Positions 6,639 through 37,322 of a DNA stretch of 64,000 nt are shown here, one piece after another. The stretch's first letter is position 1. Each line of letters begins with the position of its first letter. Origin of the DNA: an uncultured bacterium (lineage in GTDB: Bacteria; Krumholzibacteriota; Krumholzibacteriia; JACNKJ01). The DNA is taken from assembly GCA_964399495.1 (NCBI GenBank), contig CAYNQX010000011.1, forward strand, positions 16,589 to 80,588. Reading direction: 5' to 3'. The notes beneath the pieces are model-generated. The model ran no database searches. It was not told the DNA's origin and saw only the letters and a program-made list of their open reading frames with translations. The translations under genes and the position numbers were made by a program.

Positions 6639-7757
6639 TCAGTAGAGGAAGTGGAGCACCAGCTCGGCCTGGAGGTGGTCTTCCTCCGCGAAGGCGTCGC
6701 CGGATTCGTAGCTCTCGTGATTCAGCATGGCCAGGATGCCCATGAAGGGGCTGGCCAGCAGGTCGCAGCCCAGGCCGATCTTGCGATGGCTGCCGGTGAG
6801 CCGGGCCGTGTCGGGGTCGTAGAAGTTCCAGGTGGCGCGGAGGTCGAGGCCTCGGCGCAGTTGCCAGGCCAGCTCCTGGCTGGCGGCCAGCGCCGTGATC
6901 TCGCCGTCCTCCTCATCCCTGCGCTCCCAGTCCCACTCCCCCACCCAGACCAGCGGTCCCCAGGCGAGGGAGGCGAAGGGGCCGGCCACCTGGCGTACGC
7001 TGCCGACGGCGGCCTCCTCGTCGCGGTAACCCGAAGCGCCCAGCGTCAGGTTCAGCGCGCCCAGGGCATGTCGCAACTCGGCGCGCAGCGCGAAGGCCGG
7101 CCTGTTGTCGCCGTCCATGAGCCGTCCGCCGGCGCCGTTGAGAACCCCGAGGCTGAGCGAGGCGTTCGAGCCGGGGAACAGGCCCAGCTCGAGGCCCACG
7201 TCGCTGTGTCCGGGCGGCGCGAAGCCCAGGTAGCGTCTCACGAACTGGCGGTGGTCGGCGAAGCGCCAGCCGTAGGCGGGGGCGAAGCGTCCGGCCTTCA
7301 CGTAGCCGCCGGCCGGCAGGACGAAGGCGAGGCCGTAGACCTCCGTCGCGCCGGAGAGACCCTGCTCCACGTGGAGGGCGAGCTTCTCGTCGGCCTGGAT
7401 GTGCAGGTAGAGGTCTCCCTGCATCTGGAAGAAGTTGTTGCCGGCCTTCCGCTGCCCCTCGGGCGAGTAGCGGTAGAGGGTGCGCAGGTCGGCGCCCAGG
7501 CTCACGGTTTCGCTGAGCGCGGGATCGATGCCCTCCATTGCCTCCATGTCGAGACGCCGCAGGCTCATCTCGTCGGGAATCAGATACTGGCTGGCGTAGG
7601 CGCTGCGCATGCCGCCGCCGGCGGGGTCGACGTGGCAGAGCAGGCACTTCTGGCCGTATCGCGCGCCGTATCGCGGCAGGGCCTGGGCGGCCGCGACCGT
7701 CAGGAGAATCAGGAGAGCCGTCAGGACGGCGCGGGGAACTATTGAGGACGGCGTCAA
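6639..7757 (-). CDS. putative outer-membrane beta-barrel protein with an N-terminal CXXCH haem-binding motif
   Basis: TTG start at 7757 with GGAGA 7 nt upstream gives the signal peptide MTPSSIVPRAVLTALLILLTVAAAQA. CLLCH follows immediately after the signal peptide. The body is rich in alternating/aromatic residues and the C-terminal residue is aromatic (...LVLHFLY), as in OM barrels. The ORF-track start at 7898 would add a non-signal extension. Confidence 0.5.
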   Translation of the reverse strand: MTPSSIVPRAVLTALLILLTVAAAQALPRYGARYGQKCLLCHVDPAGGGMRSAYASQYLIPDEMSLRRLDMEAMEGIDPALSETVSLGADLRTLYRYSPEGQRKAGNNFFQMQGDLYLHIQADEKLALHVEQGLSGATEVYGLAFVLPAGGYVKAGRFAPAYGWRFADHRQFVRRYLGFAPPGHSDVGLELGLFPGSNASLSLGVLNGAGGRLMDGDNRPAFALRAELRHALGALNLTLGASGYRDEEAAVGSVRQVAGPFASLAWGPLVWVGEWDWERRDEEDGEITALAASQELAWQLRRGLDLRATWNFYDPDTARLTGSHRKIGLGCDLLASPFMGILAMLNHESYESGDAFAEEDHLQAELVLHFLY

Positions 7758-22680: not shown

Positions 22681-25030
22681 GCGCGTATCCCGCCTGCGCA
22701 CCGAGAGCTTCGAGGCCGCGGTGAGCTTCTCGGCCGAGCGCGCCGAGCTTATCACCGACTTCTATCACGAGCAGCACGGCAAGGCCTCGGTGCCGGTCAC
22801 CCGCGCGCGCGCCTTCGCGCATCTGTGTCGGCACAAGAGCCTCTGGCTCGGCGAGGGCGAGCTGATCGTCGGCGAGCGCGGGCCGCGCCCCAAGGCCGTG
22901 CCCAGCTACCCGGAGATCACCTGCCACACGGTCGAGGATCTCGAGATCCTGCGCAGCCGGCCCATGACGCCCTATTCAGTGAGCGATGGCGATATCGCCA
23001 TCTACCGCGAGAAGGTGATTCCCTACTGGCGGGAGCGCTGCCTCAGGGAGCGGATCTTCGAGGGGCTGGCATCCGAATGGCGCGGCGCGTATGGCGCCGG
23101 CGTCTTCACCGAGTTCATGGAACAACGCGCGCCGGGACACACCACCCTGGACGGCAAGCTCTACGAGCGGGGCCTCCTCGATCTGCAGGCCGACATCGAT
23201 GAAACCCTGGCCGATCTCGATTTCCACGCCGACCCGGAAGCCTCGGCGAAGCGCGAACAGCTCCACGCCATGCGGATCGCCGCCGACGGCGCCCTCGAGT
23301 TCGCACATCGCCACGCGGCGCTGGCCGAGGAGCGAGCCGCGGCCTGTTCCGACCCGGAGCGCCGAGCCGAGCTCGAGCGCATCGCGGCCATCTGCCGCCA
23401 CGTGCCCGCCCACGCGCCGCGCGACTTCCACGAGGCGCTGCAGGCCTACTGGTTCGTCCACCTGGGCACCATCACCGAGCTCAACGGCTGGGACGCCATG
23501 AATCCCGGGCACCTCGACCGTCACCTGCTCCCCTTCTACGAGCGCGGCCTCGCCGACGGCACGCTCACGCGCGAGCGCGCGAAGGAGCTGCTGGCCTGCT
23601 TCTGGATCAAGTTCAACAACCAGCCCGCGCCGCCGAAGGTGGGCGTGACGGCGGCCGAGAGCGGCACCTACAACGACTTCACCAACATCAACCTCGGCGG
23701 CCTGCTGGCCGACGGCGCAGACGGCGTGAGCGAGCTCTCCTATCTGATCCTCGAGGTGGTCGACGAGATCCACCTGCTGCAACCCCAGTGCAACCTGCAG
23801 CTCAGCCGCAAGAATCCGGATCGCTTCCTCAAGGCCGCGTGCCGGGTGGTCCGCAAGGGCTACGGCTATCCGTCGATCTTCAACGCCGACGGCGTCGTCG
23901 AGCAGATGGTGCGCGTGGGCAAGCGGATCGAGGACGCCCGCGACGGCGGCAGCAGCGGCTGCGTGGAGACGGGCGCCTTCGGCAAGGAGGCCTACATCCT
24001 CACCGGCTACTTCAACACGCCGAAGGTGCTGGAGATCGCGATGCACGATGGTGTCGACCCGCGCGGCGGCGAGCGGGTGGGGCCGGCCACCGGCGAGACG
24101 CGCGACTTCGAGAACTTCGACGCGCTCTACGCCGCCTTCGAGACCCAGCTCCAGCACTTCGTCGACATCAAGCTGGCGGGCAACCAGGTGATCGAGCGGC
24201 TCTACGCCGAGTCGATGCCCGCGCCCTTCCTGTCGCTCTACATCGACGACTGCATCGCGAAGGGCCGCGACTACAACGCCGGCGGCGCCCGCTACAACAC
24301 CAGCTACGTGCAGGGCGTGGGCATCGGCAGCATCACCGACGCGCTCTCGGCCATCCGCACCCACGTGTTCGAGGGCGACCTGACGATGGACGAGCTGCTG
24401 AACGCCCTCGCCGCCGACTTCGGGAACGACGAGCCCCTGCGCCGCCGCCTCGCCGACGAGACGCCGCGCTACGGCAATGATGACGACGCGGCCGACGCCA
24501 TCATGCGCCGCGTATTCGACACGCTGTATGGCGCCGTGGACGGCCGCCCCAACACCCGCGGCGGCGACTACCACCTGGACATGCTGCCCACCACCTGCCA
24601 CATCTACTTCGGCTCGGTCACCGGCGCCACGGCCGACGGCCGCCGCGCGGGCGCGCCGCTGTCGGAGGGGATCTCGCCCGTGCAGGGCGCGGATAGGTTG
24701 GGACCCACGGCCGTTCTCAAGAGCGCCGCCAAGATGGACCACCTGCGCACCGGCGGCACCCTGCTCAACATGAAGTTCCTTCCGCGTCTGCTCGCCGACC
24801 GCGAAGGGATCGACGGCCTCGCCCAGCTCATCCGCGGCTACTTCCGCCTGGACGGCCACCATCTGCAGTTCAACGTGGTGGACGTCGACACGCTGCGCCG
24901 CGCCCAGGAGAGGCCCGAGGAGCATCGCGATCTCATCGTGCGGGTGGCCGGTTACAGCGACTACTTCGTGGATATCGGGCGGGAGCTGCAGGACGAGATC
25001 ATCGCGCGGACGGCGCAGGAGGGGCTCTAG
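22670..25030 (+). CDS. glycyl radical enzyme, PFL2 / glycerol-dehydratase-like 1,2-eliminase subfamily (substrate unknown)
   Basis: 786 aa. Glycine-radical motif RVAGYSDYF near the C-terminus. Active-site GSSGCVETG (Cys-x-Glu as in the CutC/GDH/HypD eliminases). No small-subunit genes nearby. Confidence 0.85.
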   Translation: MMNERVSRLRTESFEAAVSFSAERAELITDFYHEQHGKASVPVTRARAFAHLCRHKSLWLGEGELIVGERGPRPKAVPSYPEITCHTVEDLEILRSRPMTPYSVSDGDIAIYREKVIPYWRERCLRERIFEGLASEWRGAYGAGVFTEFMEQRAPGHTTLDGKLYERGLLDLQADIDETLADLDFHADPEASAKREQLHAMRIAADGALEFAHRHAALAEERAAACSDPERRAELERIAAICRHVPAHAPRDFHEALQAYWFVHLGTITELNGWDAMNPGHLDRHLLPFYERGLADGTLTRERAKELLACFWIKFNNQPAPPKVGVTAAESGTYNDFTNINLGGLLADGADGVSELSYLILEVVDEIHLLQPQCNLQLSRKNPDRFLKAACRVVRKGYGYPSIFNADGVVEQMVRVGKRIEDARDGGSSGCVETGAFGKEAYILTGYFNTPKVLEIAMHDGVDPRGGERVGPATGETRDFENFDALYAAFETQLQHFVDIKLAGNQVIERLYAESMPAPFLSLYIDDCIAKGRDYNAGGARYNTSYVQGVGIGSITDALSAIRTHVFEGDLTMDELLNALAADFGNDEPLRRRLADETPRYGNDDDAADAIMRRVFDTLYGAVDGRPNTRGGDYHLDMLPTTCHIYFGSVTGATADGRRAGAPLSEGISPVQGADRLGPTAVLKSAAKMDHLRTGGTLLNMKFLPRLLADREGIDGLAQLIRGYFRLDGHHLQFNVVDVDTLRRAQERPEEHRDLIVRVAGYSDYFVDIGRELQDEIIARTAQEGL

Positions 25031-29854: not shown

Positions 29855-30409
29855 TCATTCCTTTCCCAGTTCGGCCGTCATGAGACGGTCTCGCATACGG
29901 CCCAGGCGCGTCCTGAGGCTGCCGTCGACGGTCTGGTCGGCCAGGTTGAGCACCATGCCGGCCAGCAGTTCTTCGTCGGTCTCCGTTTCCAGGAGCACCC
30001 TGGCTCCCGTGGAGCGGCTCAAGGCTCCCTCGATGTCACCCTTCTCCTCGTCTCCCAGGTCGCGCGCGGTGACGAGGCGGCCACGCAGGCGGCCTTCGCG
30101 CACGTCCATGAGATGTCGGAACATCTCGAGGATGTTGCCGAGCAGAGGCTCCCGGTGCTTGTGCAGCAGCACGAGCAGGAAGCGGAGCGTCAGGGTCGAG
30201 GAGGCATCCGACATCAGCTTTTCGAGGGCCCCCCGCTTCTGGGCCACGCCGAGCTCCGGCGATTCCAGCAGGCGACGGAACTCGGGGCTCTCGTCCCAGA
30301 GTTCCCTCAGGGCCAGCAGGTCGGCGCCCACCGCTTCGAGCTCGTCCTTTTCCCGGGCGAGTTCCAGCAGCGCGGCGGCGTAGACCTTTGCGATGGACGC
30401 ATACCTCAC
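29855..30409 (-). CDS. atpH: F1 ATP synthase delta (OSCP) subunit
   Basis: Position between atpF and atpA. OSCP-like sequence. Confidence 0.8.
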
Positions 30410-30960
30410 GACTCATCCACCTCGCTCATGAACTCCTTGGCCAGGCGCGTGTGGTCCGCGTCGTCGAGGGAGCGTTCGAGAAGTTTGCCGGCCACCTGCA
30501 CACTGAGGTCGACGACCTCGGCGCGCAGGGACTCCCGGGCCTTCTCGGCCTCGATCTGGATCTCCTTGCGGGCCGACTCCACGATTCCGTTTGCCTCGGA
30601 CTGCGCCTTGGCGACGATCTCGTCCTGCATGGACTTCGCCGTGACCGTGCCCTGATCGATGATCTTCTGGGCCTCCTGGCGCGCCTCGGCGAGTTCCGCC
30701 TGCTGCTGCTCGAGCAGCTTGCGGCCCTCCTCGCGCGCCTCGTCGGCCTCGGCCAGGGACGCGCGGATCTTCTCCTCGCGCCGGTCCAGGCCGTCGACGA
30801 TCGGACCCCAGGCCGTCTTCCTCAACAGGATGAGGAGACCGACGAAGGTCGCGACCGTCCAGAAGATCAGTCCCGGATCGGGGCTGAGCAGGCTGTAGCT
30901 CCGGCCGCCGTCGGCGGCGGAGAGCAGGAAGGGTAGTCCGGCGTGAAACAGGTCACACAT
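30406..30960 (-). CDS. atpF: Fo ATP synthase subunit b
   Basis: N-terminal TM helix followed by a long charged coiled coil (EEAR, KIRASLAEADEAREEGRKLLEQQQAELAEARQEAQKII). Confidence 0.85.
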   Translation of the reverse strand: MCDLFHAGLPFLLSAADGGRSYSLLSPDPGLIFWTVATFVGLLILLRKTAWGPIVDGLDRREEKIRASLAEADEAREEGRKLLEQQQAELAEARQEAQKIIDQGTVTAKSMQDEIVAKAQSEANGIVESARKEIQIEAEKARESLRAEVVDLSVQVAGKLLERSLDDADHTRLAKEFMSEVDES

Positions 30961-30978
30961 GGATGTTTTCCTTCGCGT

Positions 30979-31248
30979 TTAACCGGAAGACGTCGCGAGC
31001 ATGATGCAGATAACGAGAGCGAACAGGCCGACACCCTCGATCAGGGCGGCCGCGAGGATCATGGCGCCACGGATGTCGCCGGCGGCCTCGGGCTGACGGG
31101 CGATGCCCTCCATGGCCGAAGCGGCCAGTTTACCGATGCCCAGTCCGGCGCCGATGACGGCGATGCCGGCACCGATGCCCGCGGACAGATGGGCGGCGTT
31201 CAAAGCAGCGAAGAAGGGAAGCATCTGATACTCCTCCTGGGTGGACAT
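30979..31248 (-). CDS. atpE: Fo ATP synthase subunit c
   Basis: Two-helix hairpin proteolipid with the conserved GIGAGIA.IGAGLGIG and ion-binding E (ALIEGV). Confidence 0.85.
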   Translation of the reverse strand: MSTQEEYQMLPFFAALNAAHLSAGIGAGIAVIGAGLGIGKLAASAMEGIARQPEAAGDIRGAMILAAALIEGVGLFALVICIMLATSSG

Positions 31249-31276
31249 GGGCCGAAGCCCGGTTTCGGTCCCCGGC

Positions 31277-32209
31277 TTAGTGCTCGGGATGGACCGCCTG
31301 GTAGATGAAAATCGTAGACAGGAACGTGAAAATGAAGGCCTGCAGGAAGGCCACGAAAATCTCGAAAGCGCTGATGGCCACTGCGCCCGCGAAGGGCAGG
31401 GGAGCGAGATAGACGGTCTTCAGCGAAAGTCCGAAGATCAACCCGAAGAAGCTCAGGATGATGATGTGCCCCGCGATCATGTTGGCGAACAGTCGCATGG
31501 TGAGCGCGAAGGGCTTGGTGAACATGCCCATGATCTCGATCGGGATCATGATCGGCACGAGCGGCCAGGGCACGCCGGGCGGCACGAGCGCCTTCCAGTG
31601 CGCGATGAAGCCGTTTTCCTTGATGCCCGCGACCTGGGTCACGAAGAAGGTGATGAGCGCCAGCGTCGCCGTGACGTTGATGTTGCCGGAGGCCGTGGCC
31701 ATGGTGGGAATCATGCCGAGCAGGTTGAGGAACAGGATGAAGAAGAAGAAGTTCATCAGCAGCGGCATGAAGCGGCGCCCGACCTTGGGGCCCATGATGT
31801 TGTACACCACCTCGTCGCGCATGTAGACGATGATCGCCTCGAAGAAGTTGCGCAGGCGGCCCTTGGGCACGAGGCCGTCCTGATCGGTCTGCCTGGCGGC
31901 GCGGCTCACGACGAGGGTGAGGAGGATGGCGGCCAGCCAGATCATGATGACGTGGATCGAGGGAGCGAGATCGATGTGCAGGCTGCCCAGCTTCAGCGTG
32001 GGCAGGGGGAGCAGCTCGGCCAGGTTCCACTTGGTGTGGTGGGTCAGCTCCCAGTAGTCGCGATTGAGGACGTGTCCGAGAGCATCGAGCTTGTCGCCGT
32101 GCCCGGCCGCGTGCTCGACGGCATGTTCCGCGCCGTGGGCAACGTCGGCGGTCGCCGCGTGGGCGTCGTGTCCCGGTGCCTGAGTGCTCGCGAGGAACAA
32201 GGGCATCAC
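31277..32209 (-). CDS. atpB: Fo ATP synthase subunit a
   Basis: Conserved R in LTMRLFANMIAGH and polytopic membrane protein features. Confidence 0.9.
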   Translation of the reverse strand: MMPLFLASTQAPGHDAHAATADVAHGAEHAVEHAAGHGDKLDALGHVLNRDYWELTHHTKWNLAELLPLPTLKLGSLHIDLAPSIHVIMIWLAAILLTLVVSRAARQTDQDGLVPKGRLRNFFEAIIVYMRDEVVYNIMGPKVGRRFMPLLMNFFFFILFLNLLGMIPTMATASGNINVTATLALITFFVTQVAGIKENGFIAHWKALVPPGVPWPLVPIMIPIEIMGMFTKPFALTMRLFANMIAGHIIILSFFGLIFGLSLKTVYLAPLPFAGAVAISAFEIFVAFLQAFIFTFLSTIFIYQAVHPEH

Positions 32210-32212
32210 TCC

Positions 32213-32620
32213 TTAAGAGTCGGTTCCGTTCTCCGGCGCCCGTCGCACCGGCAGTTCACGCGATAGGACCCACCCCTCGAGCATCACGTAGAGAGGGTAG
32301 CTCAGGCCCACCGCGATCAGATAGTGGCGGAGGCTCCAGTCAAGCCGGTACCGGACGACGAGCGCCACGGCGGCCAGCATGAGGGCCCGGATCAACAGCC
32401 CCGTGAAGAAGATCCGCATGAAGCGGATGTTGGAGGCGCCCAGCGCCGCCCTCACAGGGAAGAAGCTCGCCACGGCGCTCAGCGCCGCCGCGATGATACC
32501 GGCCGCGGCGCCCGGGAACTCGCCGGGTTCGCCTTCGCCGATCAGGAGGTCGCCCACCAGGAGCGCCGCCGCGGCGATGGCCACAAGGCCCAGGAGGAAG
32601 CTGATCACTAGACGGTTCAC
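32213..32620 (-). CDS. atpI: ATP synthase protein I (AtpI)-like small hydrophobic protein
   Basis: GTG 32620 overlaps the atpZ stop (GTGA). Four hydrophobic segments. Position upstream of atpB. The long ORF-track frame (start 32902) overlaps atpZ in another frame and is rejected. Confidence 0.55.
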   Translation of the reverse strand: MNRLVISFLLGLVAIAAAALLVGDLLIGEGEPGEFPGAAAGIIAAALSAVASFFPVRAALGASNIRFMRIFFTGLLIRALMLAAVALVVRYRLDWSLRHYLIAVGLSYPLYVMLEGWVLSRELPVRRAPENGTDS

Positions 32621-32902
32621 GGCTCGTCCGGCTTCCCTTCCTCGTCGGCCTCTTCTTCCTTCTTCTTCTCGTGGACCTTCGTCTCCACCCGGACCACCTC
32701 GCGGTAGATCCAGAGGAATCCGCCCACCGCTCCCAGGGCGACGCCCACCAGCGTGAAGACCGGCAGCGTGCCCAGCTTCCCGTCCAACCACCACCCACCA
32801 AGGGCGTAGAGCGCCACAGAGGCCGCGTACGTGATGCCCAGGTGCGCATAGGACAGGGCGGAAACGTCGTGACGCCGCGCTGTCGTAAGGCGCCTTGACC
32901 AT
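32617..32902 (-). CDS. atpZ: AtpZ/AtpR-family small membrane protein, first gene of the atp operon
   Basis: ...GGWWLDGKLGTLPVFTLVGVALGAVGGF... matches the AtpZ/ATPase_gene1 motif (G..LD...GT.P.F...G...G). Followed by a Lys/Glu-rich tail. Confidence 0.6.
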
Positions 32903-32958
32903 CGTTTCAGTCGACCCTGTCGACTCATGGCTCAGGCCTTACGGTGCTGGTAGCTGTT

Positions 32959-32987
32959 TGGGAACTTGGAGCCGGGTCAGAATAGTC
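32959..32987 (-). promoter_or_regulatory. candidate sigma-70 promoter of the atp operon
   Basis: On the minus strand TTGATT-17 nt-TATTCT, about 55 nt upstream of the atpZ ATG. Confidence 0.3.
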
Positions 32988-33403
32988 AGGCCACTAAACG
33001 GAATCAAGCAGAGAATGCGGAAAAGATCACAAGCGGGCCGGGAATCTCCCTCCGGCGCAAGAATGACCGGATAGACGAAGGGGCCCACCGATTTGGCGGG
33101 CCCCAGACGCACTTGCTAAAAGCCAATGGGTGGAGATCCGTGTCCGGGTAAGGCGTAGGATGGCCCGCCTCCCCGGAGAAGCCGGCTACTCCCAGAGCAC
33201 CTTGCGAGGCTCCGAGACCAGAACCGCCAGCAATCTCAGAATCGCGAGTAGCGGATCGGCACCGAAAGTGCCCTCCTTCCTGTCGCGTTCTTCTGCTACC
33301 CATTGTCCTCTCAACGCCTGCCTCCCTGATTTATAGCGATCCGCCGCCCTCCCCGAAGGGATGATCGGCGCCATGGCAGCTCAAACGGGTCTGTCCATGG
33401 TTC

Positions 33404-33421
33404 GGTCGACTTTCGTCGACC
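33404..33421 (-). other. stable GNRA hairpin (GGTCGAC-GAAA-GTCGACC) downstream of the micropeptide pair, preceded by a second GC stem (CACCGCC...GGCGGTG at about 33422-33455); a 3' structure/terminator without a U-tract
   Basis: Perfect 7-bp stem with GAAA tetraloop. The adjacent stem-loop is read on the minus strand directly after the pep1 stop. Confidence 0.35.
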
Positions 33422-33474
33422 TCCACCGCCTTGAACCGGGGGAGGTTCGGGCGGTGATTCGATGACCGGGCTTG

Positions 33475-33540
33475 CTACCACCAGGTCTTGGTCAGGTAAA
33501 TCCCACTGGCCGAAATCATGGCCATGAAGACGATAAACAT
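33475..33540 (-). CDS. small ORF: 21-aa hydrophobic micropeptide MFIVFMAMISASGIYLTKTWW
   Basis: ATG with AAGGAGG 8 nt upstream. The C-terminus LTKTWW is shared with the neighbouring peptide. The 15-bp repeat ccaccaggtcttggt encodes TKTWW. Confidence 0.45.
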   Translation of the reverse strand: MFIVFMAMISASGIYLTKTWW

Positions 33541-33623
33541 TTGGAAGACCTCCTTGTCTCGATCACTTGCCAATCGTGCGGACTCGGCGTGATGGTCTGT
33601 CGTCCCCGAGTATCGAACGAGGC

Positions 33624-33707
33624 CTACCACCAGGTCTTGGTCCACCAGGTCTTGGTCAGCCAGGCGGTGTAGGCTCCGGTCAGCGCGGTCAGCATGGTGA
33701 TCAACAT
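33624..33707 (-). CDS. small ORF: 27-aa hydrophobic micropeptide MLITMLTALTGAYTAWLTKTWWTKTWW
   Basis: ATG with GGGAGG 7 nt upstream. About 47 nt downstream of the predicted sigma-54 TSS. TKTWW is duplicated. The 94-aa ORF-track frame extends upstream through the low-complexity, promoter-containing sequence and is rejected. Confidence 0.5.
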   Translation of the reverse strand: MLITMLTALTGAYTAWLTKTWWTKTWW

Positions 33708-33763
33708 CTTCTTTCCTCCCTTGGTGTCCTCCGGGTTTCCCCGGCTGTCTTCACCCTTCTCAT

Positions 33764-33779
33764 TGCAACCGAAGTGCCA
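33764..33779 (-). promoter_or_regulatory. sigma-54 (RpoN) promoter, consensus -24/-12 elements
   Basis: The minus strand reads TGGCAC-ttcgg-TTGCA (exact TGGCAC-N5-TTGCW). The GC of -12 is at 33767/33766, predicting a TSS near 33754. It lies directly downstream of the sigma-54 EBP gene and upstream of the micropeptide ORFs. Confidence 0.6.
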
Positions 33780-33889
33780 TGAATCGACCTCATCGGCCGC
33801 CAGGACTCCGACGCCACGCAACTCATTTGTTGTCAGGGAGATAGAGAGGGCTCGACTCACTACTGAAGGCAGGTGCGAGAAAAAGAAAA

Positions 33890-33905
33890 GTCGCCGATCG
33901 GCGAC
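33890..33905. promoter_or_regulatory. perfect 16-bp palindrome GTCGCCGATCGGCGAC, a candidate EBP upstream activating site about 125 bp upstream of the sigma-54 promoter; a second palindrome GCGCCAAGGCGC lies at 33921-33932
   Basis: The palindromes sit at a distance typical for enhancer sites of bacterial EBPs. Confidence 0.35.
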
Positions 33906-33993
33906 CATTTGAGAGCATAAGCGCCAAGGCGCTGATTTCAGCGAAGATAAGATCTCATCAATTCGGCTACACTATGTCGCCATTCGGCGCCAA

Positions 33994-35727
33994 TTATTCG
34001 CCGCGAGAAGCCCTGAGGCCCAGCGCCTTGAGCTTCCTGTGGAGGTACTGACGGGAGATCCCGAGCCGCTCGGCCGCCCGGTTCACGCGGCCGCCGCACT
34101 GGGCCAGGGTCGCCGCGATCTTCTCGCGCTCCACCCGGATCACCAGGGCCTTGAGCGTCTCGTCCGCCGGAGAGTCGGCCGCCGGATGCGCGCCGGGCCT
34201 GGGGGCGTCCAGGGCCAGGTGCTCCTCGCCCATGCGCGGCCCGCCGTCGAACAGGGCCAGGCTGCGTTCGATGCACTTCTCGAGCTGGCGGATGTTGCCC
34301 GGCCAGGCCTCGGCCTCGAGCCTGCGCAGGGCCGCCGCCGTGAAGCGGGGCGCCTCCAGCCCGAGACGCTCGGCATAGAGGCCGAGGAAGTGCTCGGCCA
34401 GCAGGGTCACGTCCTCGGGGCGGTCGCGCAGGGGAGGCAGATCCACCGTGAGCACGTTGAGCCGGTAGTACAGGTCTTCCCTGAACTCCTTGCGGGACAC
34501 GCGCTCCTCGAGATCCACGTGAGTGGCCGCGATCACCCGCACGTCCACCCGGATATCCCCCTGGCCGCCGACCCTGCGGAGCTCGCCGGCCTCCAGGACC
34601 CGGAGCAGCTTCACCTGCAGCGAGTGAGGCATCTCTCCGACCTCGTCCAGAAACAGCGTGCCGCCGTCGGCCTGCTCGAAGAGGCCGGCCCGGCTCTGCT
34701 CGGCGCCCGTGAAGGCGCCCTTCACGTGCCCGAAGAGCTCGGCCTCGAGCAGGTTCTCGGGAATGGCGCCGCAGTTGATCGCCACGAAGGGCTGGTCGGC
34801 CCAGGGACTCTCGGTGTGGAGCGCCCGGGCGATGAGCTCCTTGCCGGTGCCCGTTTCGCCCGTAACCCGCACGGTGCTGCGATAGCGCGTCATGCGGCGG
34901 AGCCGGTCGATCACGCCCAGCATCGCGGGGCTGGCCGCCAGGATACGGCCGAACTGGGTCCGCTCGCCGAGGGCGCCGCGCAGCTCCTCGTTCTCGGCCT
35001 GGAGCTGGCGAGTTTCGTCGCGGGCCTCCTCGAGCTCTTCCAGGCGCAACATGGCGGCGGCCGCCAGGCGCGAAAACACCTCGAGCACGGGCACGTCGTT
35101 GCGCCCGAACTGACCGGCCTGGGAGCCGTCGAGGTAGAGCACGCCGAGCAGGCGCTCGCCGGCGAGCAGCGGCGTCGCCACCACGGTCTCGAGATCCAGA
35201 TCGAGGATGCTCTGGCGCTCGAGCCCCTCGCGAGCCACGCGCCCCTGATGCACGACGCTGCGACGCTCGACGAGCGCGTCCCTCACCACCGAGCGGCTGA
35301 TGGCGCTGAACTCGGCGCCCTCGGGCCTGGCGAGGTCGATGCGGAGGGCTCCCTCCTTGTCGATGCGGAAGAACGCGGCCCGTTCGCCGCCCACCAGTTC
35401 CAGACCCACGTCCAGCACGCGCTCCGGCAGCCGGGCCGTGTCGCCGGCCACCAGCACCTCGGTGTTGGCTTCCAGAAGGTCCAGCAGCCGCGCGTGGGAA
35501 CGATCGAGGCCTTCGAGCTCGCCGAGACGATCGCGCAGCTCGCGAATCTGCCCTCGCAGGCGCTCGGATTCCCAGGCCTCGCTGCCGCCCGATGCTGACG
35601 ACTGCTTTGCGGGCTCGGATTCCTTCGCCGGCGCGGGTGCCGCGGCGGCGGACTTGCCCAGCAGCTTCTCCAGAGCCGGAGACCGGGCAGGCAGGGACGA
35701 CTTGGATTTCGAGGAGTCATCGGACAT
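33994..35727 (-). CDS. sigma-54-dependent transcriptional activator (EBP) with an N-terminal GAF sensory domain and a C-terminal Fis-type HTH
   Basis: AAA+ sigma-54 interaction domain ([14 protein letters not shown] motif in [25 protein letters not shown], arginine finger region). A GAF-like region lies upstream. C-terminal HTH ...[23 protein letters not shown] 35727 with GAGAGG upstream. The ORF-track start at 35754 is also possible. Confidence 0.85.
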
Positions 35728-35814
35728 TTCGGGACCTCTCGGGAAACGGTGCACCCGGGAGTGTAACCAAAATGCGCCAACTCGTCAATTCAGGCCGGAT
35801 TTGTCTCGTATCGG

Positions 35815-36804
35815 CTACAGGTCCGTGTTGTGGAGCTCCTGGCGAACCCGCTCGAGCACCTTCTCGCGGATCGCCGACTCCTCGCCGCGAAGTTCGCAGC
35901 CCGAGGCGGCGAAGTGACCGCCGCCGCCGAAGTGGACGGCCACGGCCTGCACGTTCACGCGCCCCTTGCCCCGGAAACCCACCTTCCACTCGCCGTCCTC
36001 GGCGAGCTTCATCTGCACGACCACCTCCACCGGCTCCAGACTCCTCGGCAGGTTGATGAAGTCGTCCTCGCCGAAGAGCGGAATCGCCTCGGGCGGCAGG
36101 CCGTTGGGCGTCAGGGTGAGCAGCGCGATGCGGTCGTCCTCGTAGAGCTTCAGCGACTCGAGGGCGCGGCGCATCAGCATGAGGTAGGCGGGATGCTTGC
36201 GATCGTGAACCTTCGCCGAGATCGCCGAGGGCTCGGCGCCGCGCTCCACCAGGAAGCTCGCCGCCCGGAACATCGGAGCGTCGGCGTTCTGATGCCGGAA
36301 GCCGCCGCTGTCGGTCATGATGCCGGTGTAGAGGCAGGTGGCGGTGTCCACGTCGATCGCATCGGGGTCGTAGGCGTGGATGAGATCGAAGATCTGCAGC
36401 GCGGCCGCGCCGTAGCTCGTGTCCTTGAGGTCGTGAGGGTCGTAGTCGCTGCCGCCGATGTGGTGGTCGATGCGCAGGACGCGCTCGAAGTCGCCGTCGT
36501 CGAAGCCGGTGCGGTCGAGACCGGTGCTGTCCACCACCACGTAGAGCGTGTCGGCGAACTCGGGATTGCGCACCTCGTCGCGGCCGTCCTCGATCTCGTC
36601 GAAGCCCGGCAGGTAATCGAACTTGGGCGAACGGGGAAAGGGGCCGAAGACGGCCACGTCCACGCCCTTGGCGTCGAGGAAGCGGGCGAGGGCGAGGCAG
36701 GAGCCGAGAACGTCTCCGTCCGGATGCTTGTGCAGCAGCAGGCGCACCCGCTTCTGGGCCAGCAGGAACTCGGCGGTATCACGCAAGGTGGCGACGTCGA
36801 ACAT
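35815..36804 (-). CDS. nrnA: DHH/DHHA1 phosphoesterase, NrnA-like bifunctional oligoribonuclease/pAp phosphatase
   Basis: DHH motif (RIDHHIGG), DHHA1 motif (GGGGHFAASG). Confidence 0.75.
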   Translation of the reverse strand: MFDVATLRDTAEFLLAQKRVRLLLHKHPDGDVLGSCLALARFLDAKGVDVAVFGPFPRSPKFDYLPGFDEIEDGRDEVRNPEFADTLYVVVDSTGLDRTGFDDGDFERVLRIDHHIGGSDYDPHDLKDTSYGAAALQIFDLIHAYDPDAIDVDTATCLYTGIMTDSGGFRHQNADAPMFRAASFLVERGAEPSAISAKVHDRKHPAYLMLMRRALESLKLYEDDRIALLTLTPNGLPPEAIPLFGEDDFINLPRSLEPVEVVVQMKLAEDGEWKVGFRGKGRVNVQAVAVHFGGGGHFAASGCELRGEESAIREKVLERVRQELHNTDL

Positions 36805-36962
36805 GGATCCTCCACACGGGCTACGGTCTTGGGAAGCCGCTCAATATAGCCTCTCCTCGCTCGCGAAGCCAGCCCCAAGGAGAGCGGACTTGCCGCGGAG
36901 GGCGCGGGGCGCTAGGCTTCGCGCTCGGAGGCGGCGTTCCGCCACCCACCTGAAAGGGGAAG

Positions 36963-37322
36963 ATGATGCGCCAGCACGTGACCCTGCTCGCGGCCCTGCT
37001 CATCGCTCACAGCGCACTGGGCCTGCTGATCGCCGCGATCGTGTTCGTTTCGGTGGCGGGCGGCGGCATGCTGTCCGGCGACGCGGAGGCGATGCTCATC
37101 ACCGGCACCGTGGCCACCATCATCGGCGGCTTCTTCGCCTCGATCGCCCTGCCGGGTCTGATCGCCGGCTTCGGCCTGCTCTCCTTCAAGCCCTGGGCGC
37201 GAATCCTCGCCATGATCGTGTGCATCCTCGGCCTGCTGAACGTTCCGCTGGGCACCGCGCTCGGCATCTACGGAATCTGGGCGCTGGCGAAGGAGGAGTC
37301 GTCGGAGCTGTTCCGGGGATGA
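36963..37322 (+). CDS. small hydrophobic membrane protein (3-4 TM), unknown function
   Basis: Strongly hydrophobic. The stop overlaps the start of the downstream dehydrogenase (ATGA). Confidence 0.5.
   Translation: MMRQHVTLLAALLIAHSALGLLIAAIVFVSVAGGGMLSGDAEAMLITGTVATIIGGFFASIALPGLIAGFGLLSFKPWARILAMIVCILGLLNVPLGTALGIYGIWALAKEESSELFRG

Follow-up and report, generated by a model that had tools for sequence, protein, structure and literature searches.

A predicted sigma-54-controlled module of tandem KTWW micropeptides upstream of an F-type ATPase operon in an uncultured bacterial lineage

Tandem KTWW reading frames beside a sigma-54 activator gene

We analyzed a 64-kb window (64,000 nucleotides of contig CAYNQX010000011.1, assembly GCA_964399495.1, from an uncultured bacterium of the Krumholzibacteriota) in which the gene for a sigma-54 enhancer-binding protein precedes a consensus sigma-54 promoter motif and two very short open reading frames (ORFs), pep1 and pep2, whose predicted products both end in LTKTWW. 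Coordinates are those of the window; the elements of the module lie on the minus strand, and positions 33000-36000 were read. The order on this strand is a DHH gene, the activator gene, two palindromes, the sigma-54 motif, pep1, pep2, a series of hairpins, a third small ORF (pep3), a further hairpin and the atp operon. A first-pass annotation of this DNA had placed an activator, palindromes, a sigma-54 motif, two tandem ORFs, a repeat and hairpins on the minus strand, and every one of these elements was found. The features at the core of the locus are the following.

33994..35727, minus strand: gene for a sigma-54 enhancer-binding protein of 577 residues, recognized by its Pfam domains, GAFTGA loop and Walker A motif
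33764..33779, minus strand: sigma-54 -24/-12 motif TGGCACTTCGGTTGCA, an exact TGGCAC-N5-TTGCA
33624..33707, minus strand: pep1, 27 residues, MLITMLTALTGAYTAWLTKTWWTKTWW, Shine-Dalgarno (SD) sequence GGGAGG, orthologues in 12 distinct loci
33475..33540, minus strand: pep2, 21 residues, MFIVFMAMISASGIYLTKTWW, SD sequence AAGGAGG; SD, ATG and ORF are conserved
33478-33492 and 33627-33656, minus strand: three copies of a 15-nucleotide (nt) repeat, ACCAAGACCTGGTGG, encoding TKTWW

In all loci the peptides are encoded about 290 nt downstream of the activator gene. Each KTWW peptide reads as a single hydrophobic helix, about 16-17 residues long, and then a Lys/Trp tail; the Kyte-Doolittle mean over residues 1-17 is 1.4-1.9, and by eye a stripe of Thr, Ser and Gly runs along the helix. 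Both ORFs are masked by longer frames: pep1 is the C terminus of a spurious 94-residue frame (33624-33908), in which pep2 had been placed in error, and pep2 lies inside a 56-residue frame that starts with GTG (33475-33645). Neither peptide matched Pfam or NCBIfam, toxin families included, at E <= 10, and a PDB sequence search with pep1 returned no matches. When four of the peptides were concatenated and used as a query against a database of 5.8 billion proteins, 12 proteins shared a five-residue word with the query, and both of the matches that scored were spurious extended ORFs. A degenerate pattern coding for TKTWW matched three times in the window versus 0 matches in 100 shuffles. Both strands of the peptide-region DNA commonly contain stop-free runs of 30-90 codons, and the antisense ORFs across this region are not conserved.

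Orthologous loci were fetched by protein look-up, supplemented by one stringent DNA scan, which searched a metagenome collection for pairs of TKTWW-coding motifs at a spacing of 104-134 nt. The scan returned four loci only, all with the order DHH gene, activator, peptides and atp operon. In all, 27 KTWW ORFs were found in 12 distinct loci whose activators are 60-92% identical to that of the window (two ORFs in seven loci, three in four, and at least one on one partial contig), with peptide lengths of 21-28 residues. Four further contigs from Logan or JGI (L067-L070), read for transcript ends and strain microdiversity, showed 100% identity wherever the region aligned and were uninformative on both. 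Every ORF listed by the scans has an ATG start and an SD-like GGAG, GAGG or AGGA within 16 nt upstream. TKTWW is invariant in a 20-sequence peptide alignment; as one further peptide, from locus L065, reads LAKTWWMKTWW, with AKTWW and MKTWW in place of TKTWW, we take KTWW to be the invariant core. Extra monocistronic KTWW units with their own terminators occur in L058 (6710-8190) and L065 (2866-3221), behind a TGGCAC/T that is followed by no canonical -12 TTGC.

The pattern of substitution within these ORFs is that of coding sequence. The N-terminal halves carry many silent changes (ttg/ctg, acc/act/acg and gga/ggt) and conservative hydrophobic swaps, and the third-codon-position variants within the motif are silent. 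Insertions and deletions within the ORFs are 9 and 12 nt long and in frame (the 9-nt one in pep1), and gaps in non-coding DNA are of arbitrary length. Changes at codon position 2 number three in pep1, against five and six at the other positions, and six in pep2, where the other two positions have 15 each. L071 is the closest relative (activator 92% identical), and its pep1 has 98% nucleotide identity to that of the window, with one silent and one Thr-to-Ala change, compared with about 65% for the unannotated intergenic flanks, defined as the DNA from the activator stop codon to the atp operon minus the marked promoter motif and peptide ORFs. Taken together, the in-frame conservation, the SD sequences, the silent changes and the contrast with the flanks in L071 indicate that the KTWW ORFs are translated genes and not chance frames. 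The first-pass annotation had proposed a test for homologous small ORFs, and for their fixed synteny with the activator gene, in related genomes; such ORFs are present, the activator, the -24/-12 motif and the tandem ORFs being kept in every orthologous locus whose activator is at least 60% identical, with KTWW invariant across the 27 ORFs.

A third small ORF follows the hairpins.

33186..33314, minus strand: pep3, 42 residues, TTG start, MRGQWVAEERDRKEGTFGADPLLAILRLLAVLVSEPRKVLWE, SD sequence GGGAGG at 33321-33326, supported by conservation

Nine loci conserve it, eight residues (L22, L26, L28, L29, L32, P36, K38 and W41) being invariant, and L071 has an ATG exactly at the TTG of the window. 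Profile and single-sequence searches found only seven database relatives, all of them small ORFs, and those that were traced (L064 and L071) share the synteny; gene callers fold pep3 into a 62-residue ORF (P0122). The pep3 tail, P.K.RW (GKTRWCDE in L056), resembles the KTWW tail (TKTWWDIS in L056), and pep3 may therefore be a diverged paralogue of the KTWW peptides, an impression gained from the sequences. It is absent from L058 although the peptides are present there. In L056 a perfect 29-nt tandem duplication, cttgtgttgctgtatttgtgacttgaaac, in two copies, lies just upstream of the pep3 homologue (7680-7750; about 921-978 of the intergenic region). Judged by these alignments, pep1, pep2 and pep3 are genes. 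The earlier picture of a compact module of two peptides, with no plausible ORF before the atp operon, stands insofar as the unit is conserved, and fails in having overlooked pep3, the terminator-like hairpin behind it and the putative promoter of the atp operon itself.

Activator, promoter motif and limits of the unit

The activator consists of a low-complexity N terminus, a GAF domain (about residues 102-226), an AAA+ domain and an HTH_8 domain, with Pfam matches to GAF (PF13185/PF01590), Sigma54_activat (PF00158, E = 1e-70), AAA_lid_14 (PF25601) and HTH_8 (PF02954), a GAFTGA loop at residue 337 and a Walker A motif. This combination of GAF, AAA+ and Fis-type helix-turn-helix is the architecture of the GAF-class enhancer-binding proteins of NifA/NorR/FhlA type. 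The protein scored under the cut-off of all 25 NCBIfam equivalog models tried (NorR, NifA, FhlA, PspF and others), the highest scores being those for NorR (355 bits, cut-off 476) and NifA (348 bits, cut-off 529), and on these scores it is assigned to an unnamed enhancer-binding-protein subfamily. A protein search with the activator gave an orthologue series (P0001-P0020) running from 100% down to 48% identity, from sources named Krumholzibacteria or Krumholzibacteriota; below 48% the matches drop to about 40% identity and are differently organized. A collection of species-representative genomes scanned with the activator contained relatives with at most 56% best-segment identity, and at most 41% among those near full length, and no WW-ending peptides in a comparable context were found among them, two raw matches being unrelated frames. 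In L066, where the activator is 42% identical, the context is unrelated and peptides are absent, so the module does not extend past the orthologues. By eye, a TTGACG-N17-TACACT sequence in the 87 nt that separate the DHH gene from the activator gene (35728-35814, minus strand) is a possible promoter of the activator gene itself.

The exact sigma-54 consensus occurs once in the 64 kb, at 33764-33779, versus an expectation of 0.02 matches. The sole other near-match in the window, TTGCACTGGGGTTGCA (23778-23793, minus strand), has one mismatch, which destroys the -24 GG. A GG-N10-GC element with TTGC lies 51-58 nt ahead of the first ATG in ten loci, and is also present in L071, where 15 of its 16 positions are identical to those of the window. 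The window and the fetched locus DNA (loci rather than whole genomes) gave no RpoN-box match. Four further features lie around the motif.

33965..33981, minus strand: distal box, GGCGACA, located about -200 relative to the -24 element, a candidate activator site by its positional conservation
33921-33932, minus strand: second palindrome, GCGCCTTGGCGC, read from the sequence
33879..33906, minus strand: palindrome GTCGCCGATCGGCGAC (33890-33905) with T-run TTTTCTTTTTC, a candidate upstream site at -126, from conservation and terminator score
33708..33753, minus strand: conserved 5' leader with AGAAGGGTGAAGAC, a hairpin at 33731-33744, GGACACCAA and the SD sequence GGGAGG, its 5' end being the putative start site, from alignments

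Relative to the -24 element, five loci (the window, L054, L055, L056 and L060) have GGCGAC or GTCGCC at -190 to -203, and four (the window, L055, L056 and L060) have GTCGCC at -126/-127. Such position-conserved boxes fit binding sites for the activator. The palindrome GTCGCCGATCGGCGAC is identical to L071 at 16 of 16 positions, compared with about 65% for the unannotated intergenic DNA; with its T-run it also scores as an intrinsic terminator of the activator gene. Of the suggestion that the palindromes lie at the distance of an upstream activating site, the conserved position of the half-site survives, whereas the full palindrome is not widely conserved and has this second, terminator-like character. 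The locus presents the hallmarks of a sigma-54 promoter, namely the consensus, a conserved distance to the first ORF, and a GAFTGA activator with candidate sites at about 100-200 bp. The 5' leader is nearly or fully identical between the window and L071.

Between pep2 and the atp operon lie the following features.

33424..33456, minus strand: hairpin 1, with an invariant C-rich loop, CCCCCGGU, supported by covariation
33404..33421, minus strand: hairpin 2, with a GNRA-type loop (GGTCGAC-GAAA-GTCGACC), from the consensus fold
33342..33400, minus strand: hairpins 3 and 4, predicted only
33071..33104, minus strand: terminator-like hairpin, GGGGCCCGCC..GGTGGGCCCC followed by TTCGTCTAT, by homology to the L054 terminator
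32976..33033, minus strand: conserved block that includes a sigma-70-like promoter of the atp operon, TTGATT-N17-TATTCT, near-invariant in six loci

Hairpin 1 shows compensatory changes in three of its seven pairs, with 94% of alignment cells paired, and one more in the comparison with L071. Hairpin 2 has changes on both sides of the stem in the consensus fold and compensatory changes relative to L071. A 66-nt segment that contains hairpins 3 and 4 is deleted in the closest relative, L071, and we therefore regard these two as dispensable. The predicted transcript folds better than shuffled sequences (z = -3.8). In an alternative RNAalifold structure the C-rich region just 3' of the pep2 stop codon pairs with the pep3 SD sequence and start codon, with one covarying pair; structured RNA between pep2 and pep3 may, tentatively, couple or limit pep3 translation. 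An Rfam scan of 30000-37000 at E <= 1 gave no matches.

The spot in L054 homologous to the terminator-like hairpin is a canonical terminator, and L058 has a terminator after its last peptide. The conserved block beyond it, of about 60 nt (32976-33033), reads CTTGTGATCTTTTCCGCATTCTCTGC-TTGATT-N17-TATTCT, and the element upstream of this putative atp promoter, TGTGA-N6-CCGCA, is possibly a regulator site. Given a terminator-like hairpin after pep3 and a putative promoter of atp's own, the sigma-54 unit is predicted to be a transcription unit apart from atp, of about 690 nt.

The genes on either side are those of a conserved neighborhood. Upstream of the activator gene lies a DHH/DHHA1 phosphoesterase gene, identified by Pfam. 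Downstream, on the same strand, the F-type ATPase operon begins with an ATPase_gene1 family protein and an unassigned ORF, followed by the genes for the a, c and b subunits; beyond these the window has longer ORFs where orthologous loci have OSCP/delta, alpha and gamma genes. No Pfam or NCBIfam model matches the unassigned ORF (32213-32616, minus strand), which separates the ATPase_gene1 protein from atpB; the ORF of 127-142 residues that takes its position in orthologous loci likewise lacks a Pfam match. The unassigned ORF is probably an AtpI-like protein. Divergent from the DHH gene and beside it, L054, L055, L056 and L064 contain an ORF of about 117-127 residues without a Pfam match, and a 119-residue ORF occupies the equivalent place in the window (36963-37322, plus strand), a match by position.

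A proposed mechanism and the explanations that compete with it

We favor, with a probability of about 0.55, the reading that the locus encodes a dedicated, lineage-specific module in which an activator gates the production of single-helix membrane micropeptides. A signal would reach the GAF domain of the adjacent activator, which would assemble on the GTCGCC/GGCGAC boxes about 126 and 200 bp upstream, as their conserved positions suggest, and would open the complex of sigma-54 holoenzyme at the -24/-12 promoter, as the sequence motifs suggest. The resulting RNA of about 690 nt would be translated from three strong ribosome-binding sites into two (elsewhere up to three) peptides of 21-28 residues and one 42-residue protein, and transcription would stop at the hairpin ahead of the atp operon's own promoter. 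The KTWW peptides would then insert into the cytoplasmic membrane and act there, whether by self-association, by permeabilizing the membrane or by binding a membrane complex, the F-type ATPase being one candidate partner. A tail of Lys and Trp is a typical anchor of helices at the membrane-water interface, and the hydrophobic helix with such a tail leads us to expect membrane insertion; the Thr/Ser/Gly stripe fits helix-helix packing. From synteny, the peptides may be inducible modulators of the adjacent F-type ATP synthase, but this synteny is never broken in the sample and so gives no independent signal of a link to the ATPase.

Several observations weigh against this reading, whose functional steps are all inferences. 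For a bilayer the hydrophobic stretch is short, and no positive charge is present at the peptide N terminus. The T-run of the terminator-like hairpin in the window is weak and was unflagged by a terminator scanner, so read-through into atp is possible in the window organism. A proper -12 element is missing from the monocistronic copies in L058 (unit 1) and L065. The loci all come from a single lineage, and the copies are therefore not independent. L059, in which the activator is 51% identical and the synteny is the same, contains a sigma-54 motif, CGGCACGCCCCTTGCC, then about 140 nt and a strong terminator (region 6707-7262), with neither a KTWW ORF nor pep3; it follows that the target of the activator need not be a peptide, and the L059 unit may be either a decayed remnant or a small RNA that depends on sigma-54. 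Finally, the Thr codons of the motif are ACC in 55 of 58 cases (the window plus L054-L064), as against 25 of 48 in the rest of the peptides and 52% in the flanking genes (Fisher p = 5e-7 and 2e-11, respectively, for copies that are not independent). The ACCAAGACCTGGTGG repeat is therefore constrained beyond its amino acids, for which an RNA-level role, codon-specific decoding and concerted evolution are candidate causes. The first-pass annotation had set conservation of the peptide against conservation of the DNA repeat as alternatives; both hold, the peptides being conserved in frame and the repeat beyond coding need.

This excess conservation is the starting point for an explanation in which the KTWW frames are leader ORFs, or the transcript a dual-function RNA, and what counts functionally is the RNA or pep3. 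As ribosomes translate the KTWW ORFs, perhaps with slow decoding or release at KTWW, they would remodel the RNA downstream and expose the pep3 ribosome-binding site, or the 15-nt motif would itself bind a protein or RNA. Besides the ACC bias, the covarying hairpins directly after pep2, the invariant, C-rich and anti-SD-like loop of hairpin 1, the RNAalifold pairing of the post-pep2 region with the pep3 SD sequence and start, the stability of the transcript fold (z = -3.8) and the promoter and terminator that L059 keeps around about 140 nt without a peptide ORF all speak for it. A spacer or leader, however, would have no need of N-terminal halves kept as hydrophobic residues through silent changes and in-frame insertions and deletions. 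L058 has peptides without pep3, hairpins 3 and 4 are gone in L071, and the long-range pairing with the SD sequence has a single covarying pair and, by eye, no clear counterpart in L057 and L062. There is also no Rfam match and no complementary target of the repeat in the window, where only weak matches with three mismatches were found. We judge such an RNA-level explanation unlikely, but it keeps real weight because of the nucleotide conservation of the repeat and the L059 locus. A Trp-sensing attenuator, in which ribosomes would stall at the tandem Trp codons whenever Trp-tRNA runs short and so control downstream transcription, would draw on the same hairpins and on the two to four Trp codons of each ORF (each copy having WW or WW..WW). 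No U-run follows the hairpins after pep2, what lies downstream is pep3, a terminator and an atp operon with its own promoter, with no Trp-related gene, and a counter of Trp codons would need neither the conserved K-T-W-W nor a hydrophobic helix; the earlier opinion that a trp-type leader is improbable is upheld, and we rate it as very improbable. Chance ORFs in GC-rich intergenic DNA beside a chance promoter match have a next to negligible probability: long stop-free runs are indeed common on both strands here, but 27 ORFs in 12 loci share an invariant KTWW, those scanned with ATG and SD-like sequences, none of 100 shuffles reached the motif count, the promoter motif keeps its distance, and pep1 stands at 98% in L071 over flanks at about 65%. 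Conservation and downstream gene content effectively exclude both the attenuator and chance.

Two other explanations accept the peptides as products and differ from activator-gated membrane modulators in what the peptides would do. As toxin-like peptides they would form leaky pores that dissipate the proton-motive force, induced by the activator under stress in the manner of TisB, Hok and Ibs. Their size, hydrophobicity and tandem multiplication are those of type I toxin loci, small or polar residues form a stripe along the helix (by eye), and sigma-54 promoters are silent without their activator, which would provide tight control. Yet a scan of both strands in the window, L054, L056 and L058 gave no antisense sigma-70-like promoter, a weak test made with an E. 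coli-type consensus; the strong and apparently unmasked SD sequences do not suggest a block to translation; no toxin family in Pfam or NCBIfam was matched; and the locus is conserved vertically at one chromosomal site rather than patchy or mobile. We consider a toxin role quite unlikely. The peptides might instead be pheromone precursors, exported and cleaved to release a C-terminal (T)KTWW that would be re-imported and sensed by the GAF domain of the activator in an auto-inducing loop. A regulator gene followed by tiny hydrophobic WW peptides mirrors the order in ComR-ComS/XIP and Rap-Phr, a short hydrophobic precursor is encoded beside a cytoplasmic regulator, each precursor carries the conserved unit once or twice and each locus three to five times, and GAF is a ligand-binding fold. 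If true, a GAF/AAA+ activator and sigma-54 would together make up a peptide auto-induction circuit in an apparently Gram-negative candidate phylum, whereas the circuits known to us so far use RRNPP/Rgg receptors in Firmicutes. The regulator here is GAF-AAA+ and not of the RRNPP/Rgg (TPR/Rgg) family, and we know of no GAF domain that binds a peptide. The precursors have no charged n-region, and the conserved neighborhood, which holds the DHH phosphoesterase and atp genes only, contains no exporter, protease or oligopeptide permease. KTWW is, moreover, invariant across activators only 60% identical, and pheromone-receptor pairs normally diversify (PMC8605241). A pheromone role is improbable on this balance.

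We also considered whether the ORFs are precursors of ribosomally synthesized and post-translationally modified peptides. No maturation gene for such products (radical SAM, cyclase, or protease/transporter) is present in any fetched locus, and this reading was rejected on the absence of a maturation enzyme from the conserved neighborhood of those loci.

Relation to known systems

Literature searches for TKTWW or KTWW peptides, for Krumholzibacteria and for sigma-54 with small membrane proteins found nothing relevant, and no sigma-54/activator pair whose conserved output is tandem peptides of fewer than 30 residues was found described. The KTWW peptides form a new family of small proteins; the type of control is a known one. 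The locus adds to the small proteome an undescribed family of 21-28-residue proteins, together with pep3, that gene callers miss or bury in spurious ORFs. The host lineage is uncultured, a practical limit, and the compact, portable cassette of sensor, promoter and output could be rebuilt in E. coli to find the signal and the function of the peptides. The fixed spot upstream of the ATP synthase operon is a lead toward energy or membrane physiology, and the nucleotide conservation of the repeat a lead toward a dual RNA/peptide role.

A regulatory parallel, named by the first-pass annotation as PspF-pspG, is that of PspF with pspA and pspG in enterobacteria, which shares an AAA+ GAFTGA activator beside a -24/-12 promoter, small membrane proteins among its output and tight on/off control. 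PspF has no sensory domain, whereas the activator here has a GAF domain and scores far below the PspF cut-offs; homologues of PspA, PspB, PspC and PspG are lacking, and the targets are only 21-28 residues long and tandemly multiplied. That analogy, like the one drawn to type I toxin peptides, did not hold as membership: no homology was found, and the scan of four loci with an E. coli-type consensus gave no antisense promoter-like site.

In the LuxO-qrr1 system the activator gene adjoins a short, terminator-bounded sigma-54 unit (PMC10162802). The present locus resembles it in having an activator beside a short sigma-54 unit and a repeated, nucleotide-conserved motif, and L059 resembles a non-coding version. 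LuxO is, however, a phosphorylated response regulator and the Qrr RNAs are non-coding, whereas here a GAF protein stands beside three ORFs conserved as protein.

Rap-Phr systems carry pentapeptide cassettes beside the regulator. In ComR-ComS/XIP a pheromone with a double-tryptophan motif is likewise encoded beside a cytoplasmic regulator (PMC5131902, PMC5131891, PMC8605241). The present locus has in common with these and with Rgg-SHP a tiny hydrophobic peptide, a conserved C-terminal Trp-Trp motif and an adjacent regulator gene. It differs from them in the family of the regulator and in the sigma factor, in the invariance of the motif and in having no transport or processing genes nearby, and, unlike the Firmicutes pheromone cassettes, it belongs to an apparently Gram-negative candidate phylum, as judged from the labels of the metagenome-assembled genomes.

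Type I toxins such as Ibs/Sib, Ldr/Rdl and TisB are peptides with one hydrophobic helix, 18-35 residues long, that often occur as tandem duplicates and escape annotation. The KTWW peptides are similarly small, hydrophobic, single-helix, tandem and unannotated, but they differ in the activator-dependent promoter motif and the one fixed syntenic site, and share no sequence similarity with those toxins. KdpF, CydX, AcrZ and MgtS, and the cyanobacterial AtpTheta of ATP synthase, are small single-helix regulators of membrane machines. No homology to this group was found, and the KTWW genes differ in being set off from the atp transcription unit by a terminator and a separate promoter and in having a dedicated regulator. 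They nevertheless match this group in size and in their single helix, and in every locus their genes lie immediately upstream of the F-type ATPase operon.

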